A stretch of DNA of 64,000 bases. Origin: Candidatus Omnitrophota bacterium. Lineage in GTDB: Bacteria > Omnitrophota > Gorgyraeia > Pluralincolimonadales > Pluralincolimonadaceae. The notes under the pieces are model-generated. The model saw nothing but the letters and a program-made list of their open reading frames with translations. It ran no database searches and was not told the DNA's origin. The stretch is taken from NCBI GenBank assembly GCA_041651455.1, contig JBAZJG010000002.1, forward strand, positions 127,892 through 191,891, given 5' to 3'. Made by a program: the position numbers and the translations under genes. Within the stretch, counting starts at the first letter, position 1. Each line of letters opens with the position of its first letter. Positions 19,593 to 32,815 of this stretch are shown piece by piece.

Positions 19593-22500
19593 ATGGAACT
19601 CAACGCAAAACAAAAATTAGCCGCGGAGACGCTTGAAGGGCCCGTATTGGTGCTGGCGGGGCCGGGGACGGGAAAGACCGAGCTCTTGTCGGTGCGCGCG
19701 GCGAATATCATCAAGTCGAAGAAGGCCAGGCCCGAGAATATCCTCATCCTGACCTATACAAATGCGGCCGCGAAGGCAATGAAAGAGCGGCTCGTTAAGA
19801 TCCTCGGTGCTGACGCCTATAATATCGAAACGGCCACATTCCACAGCTTTGCGAATACCGTAGTCCTGGAGAGCGACGAAGCCGCCGAATACATCCAGGA
19901 ACGCGTCCAGATAACCGATATCGAGCAGATAAAGCTTCTCGAATACATCCTTGATAACACCGACGGCATCGACAAGATCCGCCCGTTCCGCGCGCCGTAC
20001 GCTTTCGAGCGCGAGATCAGCCAGCGGATAACCGAGCTAAAGAGGGAAGGCGTCTCGCCCTCGCGGTTCGCCGAGATAATCGAAAAAACCTCGCCAGACG
20101 GCGCCTACATCGAAGAAAAGCACATCGAACGCCTCTCTGCCCTCGTCACCGTATATAAGCTGTACGAAGAGTACAAAGCGGGTAAAAATAAGGCACTTTT
20201 CGATGACCGAGGCCGCTACGATTACGATGACATGATACTTTTCGCGGTCGAGGCGATCCGCAACGAGCCCGAGCTTGCGCGCGCGCTGCGCTCACAGTAC
20301 ACCTACATCATGGTCGATGAGTTCCAGGACACCAACGGCGCCCAGATGGACCTGCTTTTTGAGCTATTAGGGAGCCATGCACAGGGGGGACACCCCTCCG
20401 GCCCAAATATTTGCTGCGTGGGCGATGACGACCAGTCAATTTTCCGCTTCCAGGGGGCGTCTGTCGCGAATTTCCGTGAATTAAAGAAGAGATTCCCGAA
20501 ATTACAGGAGATCCCGCTCGAGAAGAACTACCGCTCGACAAAAGAAATAATCTCCCTATCCGAAAAAATAATAAATAATCTTCCGGTCAAGGAACGAGTC
20601 CACGCCAAAGAGCTCGCTCCCGAGAAAGATTTCAAGAAGAAGACGATAGAATTCGACGAATTCACGACCGAGACTGAGGAACTGCTCTTCATCGCGCGCC
20701 GCATTAAGGAGATCGCGAAGAAGGAAGAGGTCCCGCTGGATGAAGTCGCGGTCCTCGTGCGCCAACGCGATGATATCCTCAAGATCGTCGACACATTCCT
20801 GCGCGCCGGCATCCCGTACGCGACCGACGGCAAGGAGGACATCGCCGGCGAAAAACGCGTCCGCCAGATGCTCGACGTGCTCTATTTCGCGCACACGCCG
20901 GATATAGAAGTTGAGCAGAAAGACGCCTATCTCTACCGCATCCTGACCGCCGATTACATGCGCATCCCGATGAACGATGTCCTGCGCTTCATCGCCGACG
21001 TCCGCGCGAAAAAGTATGAGCAGCGCAAGAAGGGCGAAGCGCCTACGATTTCAATGTTCAGCGAGTATATGGGAATGAGCCTGTCCCCCCGGAGGATGGC
21101 TCCGGCAGCTCCGGCAGCGGCGCTTGGTACACTTCTATACGAAGCGGAATCGAAGCCCGTTCACGCCATGCTCATGCAATACATCAAAGACGCCGGGGTG
21201 ATGAAGTTCATCCTCGACAAATATGATGATAACGACCTCCTGCGCATCCGCGACCTGCGCGCGCTGACGTCATTCGTCAACATGGTCAAGGAAGCCGACA
21301 TCGCGCGCCCGGGCCTGACGCTCAAGGAATTCATCGACGAGCTGGAGACGCGCAAGGCCCACGGCATGCCCCTGCAGGGCGAGCTTGTCACGGCCACGCA
21401 GGAAGGCGTGCGCATCTACACGGCCCACGGCTCGAAAGGCCTCGAATTCCACACGGTATTCATCCCGTTCTGCCTCGAGAAGAAGCGCTGGCCGAAGCGG
21501 CCGCAGGGCGTCTCGATCCCGCTCCCGCCCGAGGTCTACAAGTCGAAGGAGATCCCGACCGACAAGGAAATATTGAAACAGCTCGATTATTACGACGAGA
21601 CGCGCCTCTTCTACGTCGCCTCGACGCGCGCCAAGGCGAACCTCATCTACACCGCCAGCCCGACGGAGAGCGCGATCCCGAGCTCGTATTTGTCAGGTGT
21701 TGAAGTAAAAGGCGAGGATGAGAAAGAGGAGAATTTACTCAAGGCAGCCCTTATGACAAGTAATGAACAGGATCCATTCATAGGGACGGAAAAAGTGCTG
21801 AAAGATCTGGTGCAGGATCTCTCGCTCAACCCCACCGCGCTCAACAATTACATAAACTGCCCGCGCAAATATTTATATGACGACGTCCTGATGCTGCCGT
21901 CGGGCAAGAAGCAGTCGCTCGTCTTCGGTAACTGCGCCCACAAGGCGCTCGAGGATACCTACAATAAATTCATGAAGACCGGCAAATTCCCGGATTTCGC
22001 GTTCTTTAAGGAAGCGTTTAAGCGCGAATTAGCCCACGAAGCCCCGGAAGCGGCAATAAAGACCGCCTGCGAGCGCCAGGTCGAGACGTTCAAGGCCTGG
22101 TTCAAGGAAGAGTCGCGCCTGCCGGTCAAACCGCTCGGCCTCGAGAAGCGGCTCGTGGTCATGCTTGAAGACGACCTAAAATTTTCCGGAAAATACGACA
22201 AGACCGAGGCGATCCGCGGCGCCGAGGGCCGTGTTCGCGTCGTAGATTACAAGACCGGCGAGCCGGATAAGCACGTCAAGGGCATCAACAATTCCCTCGC
22301 GAAGAAGATCCCGGTATCAAGCGACGAATTCGAGGGCTACCTGCGCCAGCTCATCGCTTATAAGCTCCTTTTTGACAACGACAAGAATGAATCAAAAGGC
22401 CAAAAGGTGAAAGAGGGGGTGCTCGTCTTCCTCGACCCGGTCAAGGAGTCGGTCGCCAAGCACGATCTCGAAGCGGGCGAGTTCATGAAAAAGAGCGTCG

Positions 22501-22652
22501 AGCTGACCGACGATATGGTCACCGCGCTCGAGTCGGCGATAAAGGACGTCCGCCGCCGCATCAAAAAATTGGATTTCTCGAAGCTTCCCGAGCGTGTCGA
22601 TGATTTCAAAAAGTGCAAGGGCTGCGATTTCGATGATATCTGCTGGGGGTAA
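19593..22652 (+). CDS. UvrD/PcrA-type superfamily-1 DNA helicase fused to a C-terminal Cas4/AddB-like PD-(D/E)xK nuclease with a 4-Cys Fe-S motif.
   Basis: 1019 aa. Walker A AGPGTGKT and Walker B MVDEFQDTNGAQ. The C-terminus has NCPRKY, a DYK catalytic motif in VDYKTGEP, and KKCKGCDFDDICWG. Confidence 0.75.
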   Translation: MELNAKQKLAAETLEGPVLVLAGPGTGKTELLSVRAANIIKSKKARPENILILTYTNAAAKAMKERLVKILGADAYNIETATFHSFANTVVLESDEAAEYIQERVQITDIEQIKLLEYILDNTDGIDKIRPFRAPYAFEREISQRITELKREGVSPSRFAEIIEKTSPDGAYIEEKHIERLSALVTVYKLYEEYKAGKNKALFDDRGRYDYDDMILFAVEAIRNEPELARALRSQYTYIMVDEFQDTNGAQMDLLFELLGSHAQGGHPSGPNICCVGDDDQSIFRFQGASVANFRELKKRFPKLQEIPLEKNYRSTKEIISLSEKIINNLPVKERVHAKELAPEKDFKKKTIEFDEFTTETEELLFIARRIKEIAKKEEVPLDEVAVLVRQRDDILKIVDTFLRAGIPYATDGKEDIAGEKRVRQMLDVLYFAHTPDIEVEQKDAYLYRILTADYMRIPMNDVLRFIADVRAKKYEQRKKGEAPTISMFSEYMGMSLSPRRMAPAAPAAALGTLLYEAESKPVHAMLMQYIKDAGVMKFILDKYDDNDLLRIRDLRALTSFVNMVKEADIARPGLTLKEFIDELETRKAHGMPLQGELVTATQEGVRIYTAHGSKGLEFHTVFIPFCLEKKRWPKRPQGVSIPLPPEVYKSKEIPTDKEILKQLDYYDETRLFYVASTRAKANLIYTASPTESAIPSSYLSGVEVKGEDEKEENLLKAALMTSNEQDPFIGTEKVLKDLVQDLSLNPTALNNYINCPRKYLYDDVLMLPSGKKQSLVFGNCAHKALEDTYNKFMKTGKFPDFAFFKEAFKRELAHEAPEAAIKTACERQVETFKAWFKEESRLPVKPLGLEKRLVVMLEDDLKFSGKYDKTEAIRGAEGRVRVVDYKTGEPDKHVKGINNSLAKKIPVSSDEFEGYLRQLIAYKLLFDNDKNESKGQKVKEGVLVFLDPVKESVAKHDLEAGEFMKKSVELTDDMVTALESAIKDVRRRIKKLDFSKLPERVDDFKKCKGCDFDDICWG

Positions 22653-23811: not shown

Positions 23812-24903
23812 ATGGCAGTACCGCATAAAGTCCCTAAACTTCCTCCGAAGATCGATTACGCCGCGCTTGTGACACAGCTGGGCCGGGCGCATAACGCGCT
23901 TGGCCGCCTGAACGGACTTATTGCTAACCTGCACAATCCCGCCCTGCTGGCGGTACCTCTGCTTACCAAAGAGGCGGTCTTGAGCTCCCGGATAGAGGGG
24001 ACAAGGGCCACGCTTGAGGAGGTCTTCGAGTATGAGGCCGCGAAGAACGATTCGGAATCGACCGAGCGCGGGAAAGACGTCCGCGAAATAATCAATTACC
24101 GCTTCGCGCTGAATACCGCCCTGAAGAACCTCGAAAAAAGGCCGCTCAGCGGGAACCTCATGAAGGAACTGCACTCCGTACTGCTCGATTCCGTCCGGGG
24201 CGCCAACAAAGACAGGGGCAATTTCAGGAAACTCCAGGTATATATCGGCAAGCCCGGGGCTTCCATAGAAGAGGCAGAGTATATTCCCCCGGCCGCGGGC
24301 CAGGTGCCCGAGCTTATGGCGGACCTCGAAAAATACCTCAACTCAGATACTGAAAAAGACCCCCTCGTCCAGATAGGCATCGCGCATTACCAGTTCGAGG
24401 CGATACACCCGTTCCTCGACGGCAACGGCAGGGTGGGGCGGCTTCTTATACCGCTTTTCCTGTATGAGCGCAAGCTCCTTTCGTATCCACTGCTTTACAT
24501 AAGCGAATTTTTCGAAGAGAACAGGGAGATGTATTATGCTCTCTTGAATGATGTCCGCCTGAAGGGGGATTGGACAAGCTGGCTCAACTTCTTCCTCGAT
24601 GCCGTAAGCGAGGAATCCGGGAAGACGCAGTCGACCGTCCTTAAGATACTCGACCTGCACAAAAAGCTCACGCAGGAAGTAATGGCCGACGGGTCAGCCA
24701 ACGCCGTAGCCCTCCTGGACATAATATTTACCACCCCGGCGGTCTCGTTCGTAAGTATCAAGGAGCGGCTTAAGGCCAAGAGCAACCAGACTATCTACAA
24801 CCTCCTGGATAAATTCATGGAAAAGGGCATTTTGAAGGAGATTCCGGGCAAGAAGAGGAACAAAGTGTATGTCTTCAGGCAACTTATGGAGATATTGAAG
24901 TAA
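23812..24903 (+). CDS. fic: Fic-family AMPylation protein (class II, with an intramolecular inhibitory helix) and a C-terminal winged-helix domain.
   Basis: 363 aa. Canonical Fic motif HPFLDGNGRVGR. N-terminal inhibitory motif SSRIEG (S/TxxxEG/N). Confidence 0.85.
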   Translation: MAVPHKVPKLPPKIDYAALVTQLGRAHNALGRLNGLIANLHNPALLAVPLLTKEAVLSSRIEGTRATLEEVFEYEAAKNDSESTERGKDVREIINYRFALNTALKNLEKRPLSGNLMKELHSVLLDSVRGANKDRGNFRKLQVYIGKPGASIEEAEYIPPAAGQVPELMADLEKYLNSDTEKDPLVQIGIAHYQFEAIHPFLDGNGRVGRLLIPLFLYERKLLSYPLLYISEFFEENREMYYALLNDVRLKGDWTSWLNFFLDAVSEESGKTQSTVLKILDLHKKLTQEVMADGSANAVALLDIIFTTPAVSFVSIKERLKAKSNQTIYNLLDKFMEKGILKEIPGKKRNKVYVFRQLMEILK

Positions 24904-24904
24904 C

Positions 24905-25276
24905 ATGCCCATACTGATCGACGGCTGGAACATGGTCCGCCAAGAAGGCTCAGGGATAGATCATGACGACGCCCTGGCCGGCGCCATGCACCTGATCGCT
25001 ATCCTGGAGAAGTTCCAGGAGTCCCACGCCGACCCGATCACTCTTGTATTCGACAGCAAGAATGAATATCTCGATATACCGAACAGGAGCACGGCAAAAC
25101 TGCATATCGTCGCGGCCCGGAACGCCGATAACTGGATCAAACGCCACATTGACAGCATCCCGCCGCGCCAGCGCCGCAACCTGCGCGTCGTCTCCTCCGA
25201 CCGCTCGCTGTATTTTTATGCGAAGGATGCGCGGGCAACGCCGATGAAATGTGAGGAGTTTTGGGAAAAATTGTAA
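24905..25276 (+). CDS. Small NYN/PIN-like (YacP-like) domain protein.
   Basis: 123 aa. The N-terminal PILIDGWNMV resembles the NYN/YacP start (LLVDGYNV). It lies 1 nt downstream of fic. Confidence 0.35.
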   Translation: MPILIDGWNMVRQEGSGIDHDDALAGAMHLIAILEKFQESHADPITLVFDSKNEYLDIPNRSTAKLHIVAARNADNWIKRHIDSIPPRQRRNLRVVSSDRSLYFYAKDARATPMKCEEFWEKL

Positions 25277-25299
25277 TTAAAAAGGTATTTTAAGAAAGA

Positions 25300-26133
25300 A
25301 TGAAGAAAATATCAAAGCCTGACGAAGATAATAATTTAACCTCGGCAAAGCAATTTTTAAAATGGGCTGGCGGTAAAAAAGCTTTGTTGCAAGATATTGA
25401 GAAATTCGTTCCTTCAGATTACAATAAATACTACGAACCTTTTCTCGGAGGAGGTGCCTTATTTTTCAAGCTTGAGCCAAGCGTATCGCAACTTTCAGAC
25501 ATAAACAGCGAATTAATTAATACATATCAACAAGTTAAAAATAACGTTAACGATATTATTAAACAATTAAAATCTATGAAATATAACAAAAGCACTTATT
25601 ACAAAATTCGTTCGCTTAAAACTACTGATAAAGTTGTAAGAGCCGCAAGATTTATTTATCTTAATAGAACTTGCTGGAATGGATTGTACAGAGAAAATAA
25701 GAAAGGTGAATTTAATGTTCCGATTGGCAAATATGAAAATCCCTTAATTTGCGATTCCGACAATTTAATTAATGCTAGTAGGATGTTGGAAAAAACAGAA
25801 TTGACCAAAGGCGATTTTAAGCTAGTATTAAAAAATTGCTCCAAAGGCGATTTGATATACCTCGATCCACCTTATGTTACTTCCCACAAAGACAACGGGT
25901 TCATTGAGTATAATTCTAAAATATTTTCTTTAGAAGATCAGCTTAGATTAAGAAATACTATGATACGATTAGACAAAAAAGGATGCAAGCTCATTATGAG
26001 TAATGCAGATCATAAATTTATTAAAAAAATATATAAGAATTTTAATATTAATTATGTTTCACGAAAGAGTTTAATAGCGGCAGATACTTTAAAACGTAAA
26101 GATGTGAAAGAGCTAATAATAACAAATTTCTGA
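25300..26133 (+). CDS. Dam-family (D12 class) DNA N6-adenine methyltransferase.
   Basis: 277 aa. FLKWAGGKK, EPFLGGGALFF (FxGxG) and the catalytic LDPPY motif. Confidence 0.8.
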   Translation: MKKISKPDEDNNLTSAKQFLKWAGGKKALLQDIEKFVPSDYNKYYEPFLGGGALFFKLEPSVSQLSDINSELINTYQQVKNNVNDIIKQLKSMKYNKSTYYKIRSLKTTDKVVRAARFIYLNRTCWNGLYRENKKGEFNVPIGKYENPLICDSDNLINASRMLEKTELTKGDFKLVLKNCSKGDLIYLDPPYVTSHKDNGFIEYNSKIFSLEDQLRLRNTMIRLDKKGCKLIMSNADHKFIKKIYKNFNINYVSRKSLIAADTLKRKDVKELIITNF

Positions 26134-26147
26134 AAGGAAGGTTAAAT

Positions 26148-27089
26148 ATGAAAAGTACGAAATTAGACAATATTTCTCCCGATTTAATAACTAAAAATCC
26201 AGATAACCCGAGACTAGTATTTCGTCAGGAAGAATTAGATACTCTATTAAATTCCATAAAGAAAGTTGGGATTAGAGTCCCGCTTTCAATTTACGAAGAA
26301 ACTGAAAAAAAGAAATATGTATTATTGGACGGAGAAAGACGTTGGATGTGTGCAAAAAAGCTTAATTTGGATAAAATTCCCGTAATAATTGAGCCGAAGC
26401 CATCTAGATTAGAAAATATTTTAAGAATGTTTAATATACATAATGTTAGAGTACAGTGGGATCTATATGCCACTGCACTGAAACTACAAGAAGTAAAGAG
26501 ATTACTAGAAAAAGAGGGTAAACCAGATTCCATTAAGGACCTAGCTGCTGTTACAGGAGTTTCAGAAACAACTGTTAAAAGAGCATTCGAACTATTGAAA
26601 TTACCAAAAAAATACCTTCATTTATTGGAAGAAGAGCTTAAAAGGCCTAAGTCTGAGCAAAAATTCAGCGAAGATTTTTTTCTAGAAATGATGAAAGCGG
26701 TAAAAGTGATAGAGCGATATACACCAGAAATTATCGAGAAAACGTCTAAGACAAAAATAATGGATAGTTTCAAGGACAAATATGAAAAAGGAACAATAAC
26801 AAATATTGTTAAATTTAGAAATGTGAGTAAAATCGCTCGTTCCGAAAACGCCGGCGTCCCCTCTAGTAAGGCGGTTCCGATATTGAAGAAATTAATCTCC
26901 GATCCGAAATATACAATTGATGATGCTTATCAAGATTCCGTAGCGAAAGCCTACGAGGACAGGTCTCTTACAAGAGATATTGAATCTATATCCGAGAGAT
27001 TAAGCGAAATAAATAAGAAGCGCTTGAGTCCTGAATTTAAGGCATTGCTAAAAAAAATGAAAAATATAATTGAGACATTACTAGAGTAA
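26148..27089 (+). CDS. ParB/Sulfiredoxin N-terminal-domain protein (ParB-like nuclease/CTPase fold) with a helical C-terminal domain.
   Basis: 313 aa. IRVPLSIYEE...YVLLDGERRWMCAKKL matches the ParB box II GERRxRA. Confidence 0.65.
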   Translation: MKSTKLDNISPDLITKNPDNPRLVFRQEELDTLLNSIKKVGIRVPLSIYEETEKKKYVLLDGERRWMCAKKLNLDKIPVIIEPKPSRLENILRMFNIHNVRVQWDLYATALKLQEVKRLLEKEGKPDSIKDLAAVTGVSETTVKRAFELLKLPKKYLHLLEEELKRPKSEQKFSEDFFLEMMKAVKVIERYTPEIIEKTSKTKIMDSFKDKYEKGTITNIVKFRNVSKIARSENAGVPSSKAVPILKKLISDPKYTIDDAYQDSVAKAYEDRSLTRDIESISERLSEINKKRLSPEFKALLKKMKNIIETLLE

Positions 27090-27092
27090 GCT

Positions 27093-27926
27093 ATGAAATT
27101 TGAAATTCTCGATAAAGAACTATGGCCTATCGCAAAATCTTTGATAACGCAGTATCGAAGAAAAGGATATAAAACGATATTGATAGAGAAACCTTTTGAT
27201 AGAGCTGCCTCTTTTAGGCCTACGCTAATATGCAAAAAAGGAAACGAAAATATTGCAATAGAAATTAGAAATGACCCCGTTTTTAGTGAATATTTTGAGG
27301 ATTTTGTAAAAGATTGCCTTGCGGAAAGAAGACCTGTGAAAGTTTATCTAGCTATGCCAAGTATTCTAGGTGAAGAAGAAATTGCCTTAACACATAGTTT
27401 TATGAGTAAGGCAAATGGTTATGGAGTCGGCGTATTTTTGGTTCACGAAAAAGAAGTAATAGAATATATTAAAAGCGTGAAATGTAATATGAGGATCGGG
27501 CCAAATGATTGCATAATATCTTCTCGAGGCAAGGATAAAATATTGCCAATTATTAGTAGATTTAATAAAGGCGAGCCGATAGATGCTATTCGAGATATTA
27601 CAGAACTCGTTGAAAACCTAGTAGATAATTTAGCAAAAAAGGCTTCGAAAAAAAGAAAAGTTGTTCCTAGAATTAAAGAAGTTACTGATATGAATTTTGA
27701 AACTAAAATTAATTTACTATCAGCATCTGATTGGCACGGAAAACATCAAAAAAAGCATTTTAATGAAGATTTCAAATCTGATTTGAAATCTTTCAAGGGG
27801 GCAAGGAATCTATCGCATCACCCTAGAGATAAAGTATTAAGCAAAAAATTAGAGCAACAATTAATTGAGCGCATGCTGATGGGTACGAGATTGAGCAATG
27901 ACTTGTTAGTTTGTCTGTTTAAGTAA
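27093..27926 (+). CDS. Hypothetical protein in the island, function unknown.
   Basis: 277 aa, AT-rich codon usage. It lies 4 nt after the parB-like gene, so it is probably co-operonic. No motif recognised. Confidence 0.45.
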   Translation: MKFEILDKELWPIAKSLITQYRRKGYKTILIEKPFDRAASFRPTLICKKGNENIAIEIRNDPVFSEYFEDFVKDCLAERRPVKVYLAMPSILGEEEIALTHSFMSKANGYGVGVFLVHEKEVIEYIKSVKCNMRIGPNDCIISSRGKDKILPIISRFNKGEPIDAIRDITELVENLVDNLAKKASKKRKVVPRIKEVTDMNFETKINLLSASDWHGKHQKKHFNEDFKSDLKSFKGARNLSHHPRDKVLSKKLEQQLIERMLMGTRLSNDLLVCLFK

Positions 27927-28128
27927 AGTAGTCTCAGGCATAATTAATATTGATTAATACAAAAAACTATTCAGTGAAAAATGTGCGAACCGTGCTGGTA
28001 TGAGGGATAAGGAAAGCTATGGGATAAATATATTTATGAAAGAAAATGCCTCCTTTTAGCGTCTATTGAAAAGAGGAGTAAAGAAACCTTACATTGACGC
28101 ATGAATAGGGAGGTGTTAAAATACGAAC

Positions 28129-29151
28129 ATGAACCAAAAAATTTTAGGACAATATTTTACCAAAAAAGATAGATGGCTAAAAGCCCATATTAAAGAATTT
28201 ATTACATCTAGTGGCTGTAGTGAGATTTACGATCCCTTTGCCGGGAATGGAGATTTACTAAAACTCTCTGACAGTCTTGGAATCACTAAAGTATTTGGCT
28301 TGGATATCGATCCTAAAAGAGATTTTCAAGTGAATGATAGTTTGCTAAAAATACCCACTAGAAAAAATGCGATAATAGTTACAAATCCTCCGTACTTATC
28401 TAATTATAGCGCTAAAAGAAAGGGTATTTATGATAATACAGCAAAATACTTTATTGGCTCAGAATATAATGATCTATACTTGATAGCGCTTGAAAAAATG
28501 TTGCAAGCGCAAGAATGTGTTGTTGCAATTGTTCCCGAAACCTTTATAAATAGTAATTTTAAGCATAAATATCGGTTAAATTCGATTACTATAGTAGAAG
28601 AAAATTGTTTTGATGATACAGAGACGCCGATATGTGTTCTTTGCTTTGATGGCAAGGCAAAAGGATATTCAGAAATTAAGGTATATAGAAATGACGAATA
28701 TTTAAATAATCTGGGTTATTATGAAAAATTAAGATTAAAGCCTGGAAAATACATTGCAATTTCTTTTAATGACGCTTCAGGAGATATTGCATTAAGAGCA
28801 GTAGATACGACAAATCCTAGCTCTACAATAAGATTTATGAAAAAAGAAGAGCTCGATTACGATTTAAAAGGAATAAAGGTGAGTTCTAGGTTAATAACAA
28901 TAGTAAAACTGGATAAGTTAAAAAACGATAAACTAGAATCTTATTTACGGGAATGTAATAAGATCCTAGCAAGCTATAGAGACAAAACGAATGACGTGCT
29001 TTTATCACCCTTTAAAGGAAATATGAAAAATGGTCGTAGAAGACGGCGGCTAGATTACGAAACCGCACGGGCTATACTTGAAAATGCATATAATAATATA
29101 TTTGGAGAAGAGCTATTATGGACAACGTCCTCCTATTCGAATACTCGCTAA
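28129..29151 (+). CDS. Gamma-class DNA N6-adenine methyltransferase (Eco57I/TaqI-like; type II R-M methyltransferase).
   Basis: 340 aa. Motif X LGQYFT, motif I DPFAGNGDLL and motif IV NPPY. A TTGACG -35-like box and GGGAGG RBS lie upstream. Confidence 0.75.
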   Translation: MNQKILGQYFTKKDRWLKAHIKEFITSSGCSEIYDPFAGNGDLLKLSDSLGITKVFGLDIDPKRDFQVNDSLLKIPTRKNAIIVTNPPYLSNYSAKRKGIYDNTAKYFIGSEYNDLYLIALEKMLQAQECVVAIVPETFINSNFKHKYRLNSITIVEENCFDDTETPICVLCFDGKAKGYSEIKVYRNDEYLNNLGYYEKLRLKPGKYIAISFNDASGDIALRAVDTTNPSSTIRFMKKEELDYDLKGIKVSSRLITIVKLDKLKNDKLESYLRECNKILASYRDKTNDVLLSPFKGNMKNGRRRRRLDYETARAILENAYNNIFGEELLWTTSSYSNTR

Positions 29152-30062
29152 GCAATAAAGAACAAATATTCGACGATGCCAATAAGAAGGAAATCATAGT
29201 AATTACAGATAATGCTAAGAAAAAGAACAAAGCTATTAGTGGCAATGAAAGATTAATCGAACTGATAACAGCGTATCATGCCATGTATGGTAAGCTAACC
29301 AAGAAACAGGACGATGATATTATTAAGGAAATGGATTCGATACTATTTAAAGTACAGCACATGAATTATTCTGCATTCTCGCAGTATTTTATGGTATGGG
29401 ATATGCCATACTCTGTATTGCAGACTGAAAAAGAAAAAGAAAGAATCAGACTGCTACGCGGATTGCTAATTAAATATATCAAAGATAGGCATTCGATGTA
29501 TTTGTCGCACGGTTATTCGAATATTATTTTACAGGTATTATCTGATAATTACTCACATAAAAGGAGTGGTCCCACAGGAATAAATAAAATAATTATGCTT
29601 GCTGAAAAAGCGGGATTTAAAAGATATCAAAAGGACAATAATATAGAGAAAGATTCTTTTTATCTGTTACCCGATAAAAAAGACGGAGAGAAGCACTTCA
29701 AAAATATATGTAAAATACGTGGCATTAGTTTTAAATGGAGTAAAGCAAAGCAGGGTAAAATGCCAGATTGCTATATCCAGAAAGGTTCAAAAGCATATAT
29801 AATTGAGCATAAGCATAAGAAAGGCGGCGGTGGGGGACAATACGGTGCAATTGTAGAAATAGTCGACCTGCTGAAGTACACCGATAAAAATATATCGTAT
29901 GTAGCATTTATGGATGGAGTGATGTTCAATGAGCTAATCGAAGCATCCACTGACAATAAAATGTCAAAAGCAAAAAACGATATCTATAAGTATCTTAATA
30001 AAAATAAGAACAATTATTTTGTTAATACTGTAGGATTCTCTAAGCTTCTACAAAGTATTTAA
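29118..30062 (+). CDS. Putative type II restriction endonuclease (PD-(D/E)xK), cognate to the upstream methyltransferase.
   Basis: 314 aa overlapping the methyltransferase gene end. MPDCYIQKGSKAYIIEHK fits PD...(D/E)xK. Confidence 0.45.
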   Translation: MDNVLLFEYSLSNKEQIFDDANKKEIIVITDNAKKKNKAISGNERLIELITAYHAMYGKLTKKQDDDIIKEMDSILFKVQHMNYSAFSQYFMVWDMPYSVLQTEKEKERIRLLRGLLIKYIKDRHSMYLSHGYSNIILQVLSDNYSHKRSGPTGINKIIMLAEKAGFKRYQKDNNIEKDSFYLLPDKKDGEKHFKNICKIRGISFKWSKAKQGKMPDCYIQKGSKAYIIEHKHKKGGGGGQYGAIVEIVDLLKYTDKNISYVAFMDGVMFNELIEASTDNKMSKAKNDIYKYLNKNKNNYFVNTVGFSKLLQSI

Positions 30063-30164
30063 TTGCCGGTACCTCCAATCTAAGTATGCTCTGAGCAAGT
30101 CAATTTAAAATATTAGTGACGTATAAAAAGGGGCAGTTTACAAAGCGTCCTAGAATAACTTGTT

Positions 30165-30860
30165 TTGGAAATATTTCTCGTGAAAAGGAATAAATCAATG
30201 GGGAACGATGAGATAAAGGCCTATTTTTGGAAATCAGCCGTTGAATACAGTAAAGGGGATATTACTCAACTTCTTAGCGCAAGATTATCTTGCGCAGGCC
30301 CGTTATTAAGTACTATTTTATCAGGCATCGATAATTTGGGAGGTATATGCTATAAGTTTAAAGATAATAGCAAAGCAAGGTCTATCAAATTTATGAGCGA
30401 AAAAATGAAAATACCTGCGGAGGTAGCAAACTTCCTATATTCAAGCGTAAGGTGTGGTATTGTTCACCAAGGGATGCCAAAAATTGGCCTTAAATTTTTT
30501 GTAGAATATAATCGTCTTGATAAAGGTGCTATTTTCTATAAATGTTCCGAGGGTTATATCTGGTTAAATGTTGTTGAATTAGCTTATTCTTATATTGAGA
30601 CCATTGATAGTATTAGAACAAATGCTGACACGCATATTCATTTTATTCCGTCCCCAAATGATGAAGTACAGCATATTTTTGATCAAGCCGTTAGTAAGGT
30701 TGATAAAAATATAGAAGACCTACTATTAAAGATTATGGAAAAAAAAGAATCTGAGCAAATTGAAAAATTAGAACGCGGCAAAATCACGGCAATAAGTAGT
30801 AGTTCAGCATTTACTCCAGACAATACTTTAATTAGTTGCACTTATCCAATAGAATTATAA
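30165..30860 (+). CDS. Hypothetical protein in the island, function unknown.
   Basis: 231 aa. A more likely start is the internal MGNDEIKAY (ATG at 30198, RBS AAAGGA 8 nt upstream). No motif recognised. Confidence 0.4.
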   Translation: MEIFLVKRNKSMGNDEIKAYFWKSAVEYSKGDITQLLSARLSCAGPLLSTILSGIDNLGGICYKFKDNSKARSIKFMSEKMKIPAEVANFLYSSVRCGIVHQGMPKIGLKFFVEYNRLDKGAIFYKCSEGYIWLNVVELAYSYIETIDSIRTNADTHIHFIPSPNDEVQHIFDQAVSKVDKNIEDLLLKIMEKKESEQIEKLERGKITAISSSSAFTPDNTLISCTYPIEL

Positions 30861-30999
30861 ATTTATTTTTGTGTTTAGGCAGCGTTTTATATACATAGAA
30901 GTACAAAGAATGCAAAAGGGGCAAGATGCAAAGAATCCTGTAGTGTCATGTTTACAAGAGCGCCTCATAATATAATACGTCCCTAGGGGATAAGTTAAA

Positions 31000-32427
31000 A
31001 TGGCATTAACAAAAACAAAAGCATATTTTCGCGAAATACTTGTGTCTAATTTTACTTTTTCTCAAATTCATAACTTAATGGAACAAGCGGGTATCGACAG
31101 AGTTCATGGAGCTGGACAAAATTACTTCAAAGGTAAGCCGTCGAAACCCTCTCTAGTTGATGAATATTATAAAGGAGCCGAGCGCGATAGAAATGGAGAT
31201 GAAAAATTATTAGAGGCTATCAAATTATTATTATCCAAATACGAAGGCCTTAACCCTCCTACCGAAGTAGAAAACCTAATAAAAGCATTAAAAGACGAAA
31301 AACAATCGGCTATACTGGCTCCTTATGGTGAGGCCATCAATAGTGTTAGGACACATATCGAGTCTACCGAGCATAGTACAGAAAAATCAGAAGAATTGCG
31401 CGATGTATTTTTATGTCATGCCAGTAAGGATAAGGAAGATTATATAAGGCCATTCTTAGAGAGGTTAAAAAGAGAAAAAATTACTTACTGGTATGATGAA
31501 GCCGAAATAAAATGGGGAGACAGTTTGGTAGGCAAAATAAGCGAAGGGTTAAGAAAATCAAAATATATAATATTATTTATAAGTAAAAATTTTCTTGAAG
31601 GGAATTGGACAGAAAAAGAATTAAATGCAGCTTTGGGTATGGAAATTGGGTCTGGAGGCATAAAAGCTCTTCCTTTATTTATAGGAGATGCCTCAGATAT
31701 AAAACTGATTCTTGAAAAATATCCGTTATTGGCTGACAAAAAATATGAAAAATGGAATAAGGGCATCGAAGCATTAATCGGTGCTTTAAAAATACGCCTA
31801 GGTGAAAACGTGGGTTATGCGGGAACAATTATGAGAGCAACTGAAAAGCGCGAAGGGACTAGTAAAGAAAACAAAAAGGAACTTCATGTAAATTACAAGA
31901 TATTATCAAATGCAATAATAGGCGGCATTGCATTTATTTCTGTAGGTTTTACGTTACTAGCCATTAATTTTAACTTCTTCAATGCACCTAATAAAACCTC
32001 GACATCTATACCAAAGGTACATATTTCTCAGGAATATCCTTCTTCGCAGGGGTATTCTTATAATCAATATATTGATCTAACAGCAGGAGATCCGGCTGTT
32101 ATGACTTTATTATCAGAAGATCAGCCAATGTGGCTTGGGATGATTAATGTCGATACTTTTAATATAAAAAACCCTATTTTATTTTTAAACTTTGATGGAA
32201 ATGTTAATGTCGATGTTAAACGTCCCGAATCTGATAGATGGGCAGAAATGGATCCAGGGAAACAGTATAACATTAGAATTAATGACGAGATTCAACCTGG
32301 AAATAGAGCAAAATTACCCCCCTTTTATGTCAGATTCCAAAAAGCGGGAATCTATCATGTGTTATATGCAATATCGACGGACGATAGTTTTCCAAGAAGG
32401 GGCTCTTTTGATATTAAAGTAAAATAG
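31000..32427 (+). CDS. TIR-domain protein with a single transmembrane helix and a C-terminal domain of unknown function.
   Basis: 475 aa. The TIR core DVFLCHASKDKEDYIRPFLERLKREKITYWYDEAEIKWGDSLVGKISEGLRKSKYIILFISKNFLEGNWTEKEL spans about aa 135-260. A transmembrane helix IIGGIAFISVGFTLLAINF lies near aa 300. A TATAAT box is at 30971-30976. Confidence 0.75.
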   Translation: MALTKTKAYFREILVSNFTFSQIHNLMEQAGIDRVHGAGQNYFKGKPSKPSLVDEYYKGAERDRNGDEKLLEAIKLLLSKYEGLNPPTEVENLIKALKDEKQSAILAPYGEAINSVRTHIESTEHSTEKSEELRDVFLCHASKDKEDYIRPFLERLKREKITYWYDEAEIKWGDSLVGKISEGLRKSKYIILFISKNFLEGNWTEKELNAALGMEIGSGGIKALPLFIGDASDIKLILEKYPLLADKKYEKWNKGIEALIGALKIRLGENVGYAGTIMRATEKREGTSKENKKELHVNYKILSNAIIGGIAFISVGFTLLAINFNFFNAPNKTSTSIPKVHISQEYPSSQGYSYNQYIDLTAGDPAVMTLLSEDQPMWLGMINVDTFNIKNPILFLNFDGNVNVDVKRPESDRWAEMDPGKQYNIRINDEIQPGNRAKLPPFYVRFQKAGIYHVLYAISTDDSFPRRGSFDIKVK

Positions 32428-32740
32428 TTTAAGGTTTAATTAACGGTGCATAAATAGGCTATTAACCGAAAGCCCTGCGCGACGTCATAACGAATTCTCA
32501 TGTTTAAAGACCGCAGCGACGCCGGAGAAAAGCTATCTTCGTCCTTTGAAAATAATAACGTGTGATTTTGTTTGTACCGGCATAGCATGAAGGAGGTGAT
32601 GGAGGTCAAACAATGATGCCGGGCAAGCGGTTGAGATAAACAGGCAGGGGACCCCACGGGGTTACCCCGATCCCCAGTAATCTGAAAGATTACGGGGATT
32701 AATCCCGGAAATTCTTCGAATTTCTCGGGACAAGCGCGGT

Positions 32741-32759
32741 CAAATCTCGCGGAGATTTG
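32741..32759. promoter_or_regulatory. Perfect 8-bp inverted repeat CAAATCTC-GCG-GAGATTTG upstream of the SIMPL gene.
   Basis: Seen directly, within a 385-nt non-coding region. The same region also contains the stem CCCCAGTAATC/GATTACGGGG (32674-32699) and the palindrome GGGATTAATCCC. Confidence 0.35.
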
Positions 32760-32815
32760 CCCTGTCGGGCCCTGCGGGTAAATTTTGCTTCGCAAAATTT
32801 AGTAAGGGGAGAAAG

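Follow-up and report, generated by a model that had tools for sequence, protein, structure and literature searches.

What might a DNA methyltransferase, a ParB-like protein and a protein of no recognised family do together when their genes lie almost end to end? The question is raised by a locus in a stretch of 64,000 nucleotides (nt) from a Candidatus Omnitrophota bacterium (GenBank assembly GCA_041651455.1, contig JBAZJG010000002.1, positions 127,892 to 191,891 of the forward strand). This whole stretch is referred to as the window, and its positions are counted from its first letter. The three genes constitute a co-inherited, translationally coupled operon without ParA, in which the methylase and the ParB-like gene are followed by a gene for a predicted fusion of a restriction endonuclease (REase) fold and a HEPN-like domain. 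On balance, the operon appears to be a self-contained, horizontally mobile conflict or defence cassette resembling restriction-modification (R-M) systems, for which we infer a role in defence. The genes are as follows.

25300..26133, + strand: gene 1, predicted D12-class methyltransferase, 277 amino acids (aa)

26148..27089, + strand: gene 2, ParB-like protein, 313 aa

27093..27926, + strand: gene 3, candidate effector, 277 aa

An earlier note on this DNA had described three open reading frames (ORFs) with spacers of 14 and 3 nt. Its coordinates are exact, and all three ORFs lie on the + strand. According to the ORF list and the raw sequence, the spacer between genes 1 and 2 (26134-26147) contains an AGGAAGG Shine-Dalgarno sequence, and the one between genes 2 and 3 occupies 27090-27092.

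The conservation of this arrangement is evident from a scan of 185,579 species, each represented by one genome, in which 134 relatives of the ParB-like protein were found and 80 loci fetched; a non-redundant set of 84 loci was used for clustering and synteny. A hidden Markov model (HMM) of gene 3 recognised a homologue starting only a few nt from the ParB stop codon, frequently with a 4-nt overlap, in 71 of the 80 fetched loci, and BLAST clustering placed gene 3 directly downstream of the ParB gene in 78 of the 84 non-redundant ones. On the other side, PF02086 methylases make up 67 of the 73 same-strand ORFs that end at the ParB start. Class-specific HMMs located a D12 methylase directly upstream in 68 of the 84 loci, and 74 have one adjacent if all arrangements are counted; three of the ten loci without an adjacent one are truncated at contig edges, so that at least 91% of assessable loci keep the methylase. 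This gene order recurs in 68-78 of 84 independent loci, far more often than chance would allow. The proposal of a single module is thereby borne out, as is the description of its layout as non-canonical for R-M systems, which the conserved synteny of the triad supports. Gene 3, whose possible lack of conservation had been named as a weak point of the idea, is strongly conserved with the ParB gene. No conserved fourth gene was found, as no other family recurs across the 84 loci.

The components are also inherited together. Two classes of methylase (~265-340 aa and ~400-490 aa) occur, and in 66 of 67 nearest-neighbour comparisons the class agrees with the ParB clade; therefore, the genes travel together. 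Mean pairwise identities calculated for the same 47 loci are 0.415 for the ParB-like protein, 0.391 for the methylase and 0.226 for the gene 3 product, which is the fast-evolving component, changing at about twice the rate of its partners.

The cassette is patchily distributed and horizontally acquired. At least 768 relatives of the ParB-like protein were recognised at E ≤ 1e-3, and the cassette itself occurs in ~0.07% of species genomes, scattered over ~20 phyla and two archaeal lineages (Micrarchaeota and Thermoplasmata); the co-occurrence in other genomes about which the earlier note had asked thus extends to over 70 loci. Bacterial carriers belong to Planctomycetota, Verrucomicrobiota, Acidobacteriota, Actinomycetota, Pseudomonadota, Bacteroidota, Ignavibacteriota, Zixibacteria, Elusimicrobiota, Nitrospinota, Gemmatimonadota, Chloroflexota, Cyanobacteria, Methylomirabilota and Myxococcota. 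Some are available in culture, i.e., Chryseobacterium sp. Leaf180, Xanthomonas bonasiae FX4, Luteibacter jiangsuensis, Sphingomonas sp. UNC305MFCol5.2, Microbacterium arthrosphaerae, Reyranella massiliensis and Leucobacter celer. None of the 72,556 PLSDB plasmids or 50,697 INPHARED phages contains the cassette, which is carried by a single one of the 2.9 million IMG/VR contigs.

Judged from its translation, gene 1 is a D12-class (Dam/DpnM-like) N6-adenine DNA methyltransferase. It matches PF02086 MethyltransfD12 (E = 2.2e-56, 191.8 bits against a cutoff of 22), TIGR00571 dam (275.6 bits against a cutoff of 114.85) and the PADLOC model MTase_II (PDLC03294, E = 1.2e-91). The translation contains the S-adenosylmethionine-binding FLGGG (an FxGxG motif, within EPFLGGGALFF) and the catalytic DPPY (within YLDPPYV), and residues D189, P190, P191 and Y192 are near-invariant among the 73 ORFs upstream of the ParB gene. 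The nearest solved structure is DpnM (M1.DpnII, PDB ID: 2dpm, E = 2.7e-63), followed by DNA adenine methylases of the E. coli Dam type (E = 2e-34 to 4e-34). DpnM is the GATC methylase of the DpnII system. The target of gene 1 is probably N6-methyladenine (m6A) in GATC, a specificity that we infer from these closest solved relatives.

The ParB-like protein is divided into three regions, the first of which contains the invariant nucleotide-binding motif.

Gene 2, residues ~5-100: nucleotide-binding N-terminal domain; ~114-151: helix-turn-helix (HTH) of the ParB type; ~165-313: conserved uncharacterised C-terminal region

26331..26342, + strand: codons of GERR (Box II / P-motif), residues 62-65 of the ParB-like protein, invariant in the family alignment

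On the strength of its predicted domains, gene 2 is a partition-type ParB, with a nucleotide-binding domain carrying GERR and an HTH. It matches PF02195 ParB_N (E = 6.5e-17) and TIGR00180 parB_part (80.2 bits against a cutoff of 58.45); the earlier naming of a Dam-type methyltransferase next to a GERR-bearing ParB-N protein therefore agrees with family models scoring above their cutoffs for both genes. The motif lies within LLDGERRW (residues 59-66), where G62, E63, R64 and R65 are invariant. A profile of 24 family members aligns with residues 40-185 of Caulobacter ParB (PDB ID: 6t1f and 7bm8, E = 1.4e-18): NPDNPR corresponds to NPDQPR (with glutamine replaced by asparagine in Box I), GERRW to GERRW, and the HTH is aligned together with the LL-LP segment that follows it. 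Within Box III (IHNV-R versus IENVQR), the asparagine and arginine are kept and the glutamate is replaced by an invariant histidine. The family (~315 aa) is unusually conserved, with a mean column identity of 63%. Across the 24 members, residues ~165-313 match no Pfam family, and Pfam recovered only ParB_N and HTH families, with no match to the DUF262/GmrSD_N (DGQHR) models. Among PADLOC models there is no system-specific match, the sole one being a marginal mad1 HTH (E = 0.0068). According to a 2025 survey of the ParB-CTPase fold, nucleotide specificity is unpredictable from sequence (PMC12704722).

A remnant of a plasmid or phage partition system, which the earlier note had thought a nearby parA would betray, is rejected as an identity of gene 2. 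No ParA-like ORF is present between 19.5 and 38 kb of the window and no ParA-like cluster among the neighbours of the 84 loci; no plasmid or phage record contains the ParB-like protein or gene 3, apart from the single IMG/VR contig mentioned above.

Gene 3 matches no family above threshold in Pfam, PADLOC or NCBIfam. PADLOC models yielded no match to it at all, a sequence search against the PDB only low-complexity noise from designed proteins, and PHROGs a single sub-threshold match to an unannotated family. Its own family comprises at least 419 representative clusters at 50% identity, all of them stand-alone proteins of ~275-290 aa. The fold comparison suggested earlier for this 277-aa protein points to a nuclease-type PD-(D/E)XK fold and a HEPN-like domain, which are separate in a confident AlphaFold2 model (predicted local distance difference test, pLDDT, 90.6; predicted template modelling score 0.81).

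Gene 3, residues 1-126: N-terminal domain with predicted PD-(D/E)XK fold; 144-276: C-terminal HEPN-like helical domain (both from the AlphaFold2 model and Foldseek)

27804..27821, + strand: codons of R-N-L-S-H-H (R238 to H243), an RNxxxH (Rx4H) HEPN-type motif, from the alignment of 94 homologues

The modelled N-terminal domain consistently matches the PD-(D/E)XK restriction-endonuclease fold. Foldseek relates it to SfsA, Bax1, AF1548, the small subunit of R.BspD6I, Hjc, OkrAI and Can2 in the PDB (best E = 6.7e-3), and to MmcB-like, Mrr, VRR-NUC and Holliday-junction resolvase proteins in BFVD (five at E ≤ 1e-3, the best at 2.2e-5); the Pfam AHJR-like family is found below threshold (E = 4e-4). 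The canonical D...(D/E)xK signature was not found in this domain: the place of the PD aspartate is taken by threonine (T44, 86%), and E57 is not followed by a lysine. Two acidic residues are conserved, namely E32 (95% acidic) and E/D57 (100% acidic).

Across the 94 diverse homologues, only G113, E174, R238 and H243 of gene 3 are invariant. E174, R238 and H243 are each present in 94 of 94, and N239 in 90 (96%). R-N-x-x-x-H is the classical HEPN signature (Rx4-6H, typically R-[NHD]-x-x-x-H). When modelled alone (pLDDT 89.6), the C-terminal domain has its best PDB matches in the HepT toxins of MntA-HepT systems (7bxo_G, 6m6w_H, 5yep_B and 6m6u_H), followed by the HEPN proteins AF_0298 and HI0074 (PDB ID: 2hsb and 1jog). 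Sub-threshold matches to Pfam families of the HEPN clan were also obtained among the 94 members (DUF4145 in six, best E = 4e-4; HepT-like_2 in two; HEPN_Apea and Abi_2 in one each). Because of the R-N-x-x-x-H motif and the resemblance to HepT, the domain is a probable HEPN RNase. As gene 3 would thus be a fusion of an REase-fold and a HEPN-like domain, it is the likeliest nuclease of the cassette; the ParB-like protein, for which the earlier note had considered that role, is the less likely candidate.

An endonuclease-like fold beside a DpnM-like methylase also raises the possibility of an ordinary Type II (DpnII-like) R-M system, in which gene 3 would be the GATC endonuclease and the ParB-like protein a controller, analogous to C-proteins, that times the expression of methylase and nuclease. 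Apart from the relationship of gene 1 to M1.DpnII, such a system would account for the two conserved acidic residues of the gene 3 N-terminal domain and for the HTH of the ParB-like protein, whose relatives such as KorB are transcriptional repressors (PDB ID: 8qa8 is among the matches). It is nevertheless rather unlikely. The 313-aa ParB-like protein is the most conserved of the three over its whole length, including the GERR pocket, which exceeds the needs of a C-protein, and k-mer enrichment upstream of the methylase revealed no conserved operator motif. Moreover, the invariant residues of gene 3 are those of the HEPN RNxxxH motif and E174, not those of a PD..(D/E)xK site, and gene 3 matches neither the DpnII nor the MboI family.

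The similarity to HepT suggests a second explanation, a selfish addiction cassette of the toxin-antitoxin (TA) kind. In MntA-HepT systems, HepT is restrained by MNT. By analogy, the HEPN toxin would be restrained by the ParB-like protein, through binding or through nucleotide-dependent modification, the methylase would be cargo or a second layer of addiction, and the whole would persist by post-segregational killing. HepT toxins are indeed the closest structural neighbours of the gene 3 C-terminal domain, the overlapping or abutting ParB and gene 3 reading frames suggest a stoichiometric pair, and this pair occurs without a D12 methylase in four loci (L006, L008, L012 and L065). Kinases and NTP-using enzymes are among the members of the ParB/Srx fold, and the ParB-like protein has a weak match to SerK (E = 2.6e-4); the patchy, horizontally acquired distribution of the cassette would also be expected of an addiction module. 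On the other hand, a simple TA pair needs no methylase, which is here retained in the great majority of loci and co-inherited with the ParB-like protein; the ParB-like protein keeps its full DNA-binding HTH; and the cassette is absent from the plasmids and phages among which addiction modules are common. Only a small probability is therefore left to addiction.

Indications of an R-M-like defence cassette are given by the surroundings of the triad, both in the window and elsewhere. In the window, the triad opens an island of deviating composition.

25277..32450, no strand: low-GC island with the triad at its left edge, GC ~33% against ~55-56% in the flanks, from the composition profile

The fall in GC content on this Omnitrophota contig, from ~0.55 to ~0.33 across roughly 25.3-32.5 kb, is sharp, and the island starts directly past the stop codon of an NYN/YacP-like gene of host-like GC. 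The tetranucleotide CTAG is depleted in the host part of the window (1-25276 and 32801-64000; 7 observed against ~209 expected from base composition), whereas it is not depleted in the island (25277-32800; 27 observed against 22.5 expected), a contrast consistent with a recent foreign origin of the island. No transfer RNA gene was found in the window, and no att-like direct repeats flank the borders of the island.

In other loci the cassette is varied in a manner that is typical of defence systems. The place of gene 3 is taken by a DUF6602 protein (E = 8e-16) in locus L029 (6932-7717), and by ~235-aa proteins with a faint RecC_C/STK_08120-like similarity in L062 (6945-7652), L064 (6954-7664) and L080 (6921-7637), which suggests that this position is an exchangeable effector slot. 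Additions of a restriction type include a DUF4357 protein inserted between methylase and ParB-like protein (L014, 5101-5955), an 853-aa ResIII helicase upstream, with the methylase downstream (L016, 3429-5990), and a MutH/MvaI-like endonuclease upstream (L048, 3404-4021); in L006, an MT-A70 methylase with an adjoining BglII endonuclease replaces the D12 enzyme. Neighbours in other loci comprise AbiEii, a pPIWI-associated nuclease, MmeI/Eco57I methylases, T5orf172-ResIII, DndB, DUF87, AIPR, GmrSD_N, HsdM, SWI2/SNF2 proteins, BglII R-M and integrases. The modularity seen in effector swaps and restriction-type additions, together with the frequent occurrence of neighbours of the restriction, Abi or TIR kinds, was counted in favour of defence.

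These surroundings also bear on a non-immune explanation, in which an orphan Dam-type methylase and a Noc/ParB-like reader of methylated sites would form an epigenetic or chromosome-organising module, with gene 3 as an accessory. The greatest similarity of the ParB-like protein is to chromosomal ParB, Noc and Spo0J, many loci are situated among housekeeping genes, and PADLOC scores gene 1 as an orphan methylase as well (PDLC03735, E = 7.4e-78). Such a module seems very improbable, since a cassette restricted to so few species genomes, scattered over phyla and located here in an island of foreign GC, is the opposite of core housekeeping, and since it contains a partner with a nuclease-type HEPN motif and is subject to effector swapping and restriction-type additions.

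If the cassette is indeed an R-M-like defence system, the DpnM/Dam-like enzyme would mark the host's own DNA, probably as m6A in GATC. The ParB-like protein, which combines a putative NTP pocket with an HTH, would be an NTP-switched sensor or scaffold that engages DNA and discriminates or tracks it, and would control the gene 3 product. The HEPN site of the latter might execute the response to unmarked incoming DNA by RNA cleavage, growth arrest or abortive infection, while its non-canonical REase-fold domain could possibly add DNA binding or cleavage. A dependence of the function on methylation is presumed in this scheme, and no specific biochemical mechanism is advanced with more than low confidence. 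One such mechanism, put forward with little confidence, is that the ParB-like protein might truly act as a DNA clamp gated by NTP. Such a clamp would be loaded on DNA without the methylation of the cassette (e.g., at unmethylated GATC sites of incoming phage or plasmid DNA), close or spread in a manner dependent on cytidine triphosphate (CTP) or another NTP, and license the REase-fold/HEPN partner to cut nucleic acid.

Several results weigh against the defence reading or parts of it. Housekeeping genes (for ribonucleotide reductase, TPR proteins and transporters) make up about half of the flanking genes, which leaves a moderate, not an overwhelming, defence-island signal. Methylation may not be obligatory, because seven assessable loci are devoid of a D12 methylase. 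PADLOC-DB v2.0.0, which covers catalogued anti-phage systems, matches only the methylase, by generic methyltransferase models, and contains models for neither the ParB-like protein nor gene 3. DNA cleavage by the REase-fold domain is doubtful because the canonical aspartate and lysine are absent. For the C-terminal domain, Foldseek scores are weak (best E = 0.12, probability 0.98, template modelling score ~0.5), and no curated HEPN family HMM is matched above threshold among the 94 gene 3 members. Finally, neither a parS-type palindrome nor a k-mer conserved across loci was found in or around the operon.

The closest precedent for the favoured reading is an entry in a 2013 survey of HEPN proteins (Biol Direct 8:15, Table 1, PMC3710099), in which HEPN_MAE_28990 is listed with a ParB-superfamily protein and a DNA methylase. 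The operon resembles the present one in combining these three genes; the evidence for it was comparative genomics only, and it was read as HEPN RNases coupled to R-M systems. According to the same survey, HEPN domains in R-M contexts are fused to REase-fold and ParB-fold DNases, and a two-pronged or back-up response was proposed for HEPN RNases in R-M loci (PMC3710099). However, the entry mentions neither an N-terminal REase-fold domain nor the D12 class, nor a partition-type ParB with an HTH. None of the 94 gene 3 homologues matches PF18737 (HEPN_MAE_28990) at E < ~0.1, and gene 3 can therefore be no more than a sister or an analogue of that family. The 2025 survey of the ParB-CTPase fold covers phage ParB-methylase fusions and orphan ParB-HTH proteins, and both the operon and HEPN are absent from its text (PMC12704722). 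The cassette is best classed as an R-M-associated HEPN defence variant that has been hinted at computationally and is uncharacterised.

Other known systems share individual features with the cassette. GmrSD, BrxU, SspE and DndB also combine a nucleotide-binding module of the ParB/Srx fold with a nuclease-type effector and a link to DNA modification (by description, DndB is a ParB-like domain with HEPN, and GmrSD is ParB with HNH). Unlike in these systems, the ParB of the cassette is of the PF02195/TIGR00180 partition type with an HTH and not of the DUF262/DGQHR type, the effector is a separate polypeptide, and the modification would be plain D12 adenine methylation instead of phosphorothioate, deazaguanine or glucosyl-hydroxymethylcytosine. 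DndB, GmrSD and SspE, which fall in the DUF262 branch, may thus serve as functional analogies only; of the likeness to DndB and DpdB drawn in the earlier note, the analogy stands, whereas membership of the DUF262/DndB kind does not. PrrC-EcoprrI resembles the cassette in that a HEPN RNase is genetically tied to a methylase-based system. PrrC, however, has an ABC-type NTPase domain and accompanies a full Type I HsdMSR, whereas the cassette contains no HsdR or HsdS and no canonical REase, and its NTP-binding partner would be ParB.

As regards ParABS, Noc and KorB, the N-terminal domain of the ParB-like protein, with GERR, the Box III asparagine and the HTH, aligns with Caulobacter ParB, Noc and Spo0J. 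The cassette differs from these systems in lacking ParA, an identified parS and a detectable canonical C-terminal dimerisation domain, in the exchanges of the Box III glutamate for an invariant histidine and the Box I glutamine for an asparagine, and in the pairing with a methylase and a HEPN-like protein. MntA-HepT shares with it the Rx4H motif and provides the best structural matches of the gene 3 C-terminal domain; in contrast to that system, the cassette has no MNT nucleotidyltransferase partner, its HEPN domain is fused to an REase-fold domain, and the scores of the matches are weak.

If the cassette is an immune system, it would constitute a compact, widely scattered module of bacteria and archaea (~20 phyla) that is new to the catalogue, with a partition-type ParB nucleotide switch, and no helicase, ABC ATPase or DUF262 protein, as its sensor. 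Two active fields, CTP-dependent ParB clamps and HEPN-mediated abortive infection, would be linked by it, and it would offer a tractable three-gene system for reading methylation state without a classical restriction enzyme. Should the clamp mechanism be true, it would be the first use of the ParB CTP switch for self/non-self discrimination and would define a new R-M-like class, the 'restriction' arm of which is a ParB-HEPN pair. A new, well-delimited pair of gene families would remain even if its function were that of addiction or of a DpnII-type R-M system under regulation. The cultured carriers make the cassette hypothesis directly testable.

Candidate binding sites for the ParB-like protein were also considered. 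A perfect 13+1+13 palindrome (AAGATTTCAAATC T GATTTGAAATCTT) is located at 27766-27792 inside gene 3. It consists of two tandem near-palindromic 11-mers, GATTT[C/G]AAATC, and encodes D-F-K-S-D-L-K-S. It was rejected as a parS: it is not conserved in the closest loci (L093, L095 and L001), and its half-site does not occur above chance in the window. The palindrome arises where near-palindromic AT-rich codons specify a tandem D-F/L-K-S peptide. Another palindrome, of 19-21 nt (GAACATCATGATGATGTTC; (G/A)AACATCATGATGATGTT(C/T)), recurs in ParB-like genes of the actinobacterial type, ~680 nt before the ParB stop (L059, L066-L069, L073, L075, L079 and L085-L087). It coincides with the codons of a conserved N-I-M-M-M-F motif and is probably a by-product of coding. 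The ratio of observed to expected GATC (0.68 in the host part, 0.71-0.81 in the island and triad) is uninformative, and there is no GATC depletion in the triads overall (972 observed against 617 expected).

Further genes with possible roles in conflict were observed in the vicinity of the triad. At 19593-22652, in DNA of host GC ~2.6 kb upstream of the island, a UvrD-like helicase of 1019 aa is encoded, the C-terminal end of which is a PD-(D/E)XK/Cys-cluster (AddA/AddB-like). Immediately 5' of the island, at 23812-25276 and with host-like GC, a Fic/DOC protein (363 aa, Fic_N and Fic) is followed, 1 nt past its stop codon, by the 123-aa NYN/YacP-like protein; the two form a possible toxin-type pair.

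Within the island, a second possible R-M pair is present at 28129-30062. It comprises a 340-aa methylase, Eco57I-like and of the gamma class of N6-adenine enzymes (TNPPY; PF07669, E = 1.6e-5; phrog_18657, E = 2.9e-28), and a 314-aa orphan whose gene overlaps that of the methylase by 34 nt. The orphan has no family match and contains a D...E-H-K-like stretch (YIIEHKHKK); as a candidate, it might be a restriction endonuclease. A 231-aa orphan starting at 30165 also belongs to the island, the last gene of which (31000-32427) encodes a 475-aa TIR-domain protein (PF13676, E = 8e-18; PADLOC PDC-S66, E = 1e-33). This protein also matches the TIR part of retron/RT-TIR proteins; it contains a hydrophobic segment, and its C-terminus is beta-rich. 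Two copies of a 40-nt element that begins AAAAGGGGCA occur with 70% identity (30126-30165 and 30914-30953), each just 5' of a gene start, i.e., that of the 231-aa orphan (30165) and that of the TIR gene (31000); the element could serve both genes as a promoter or leader.

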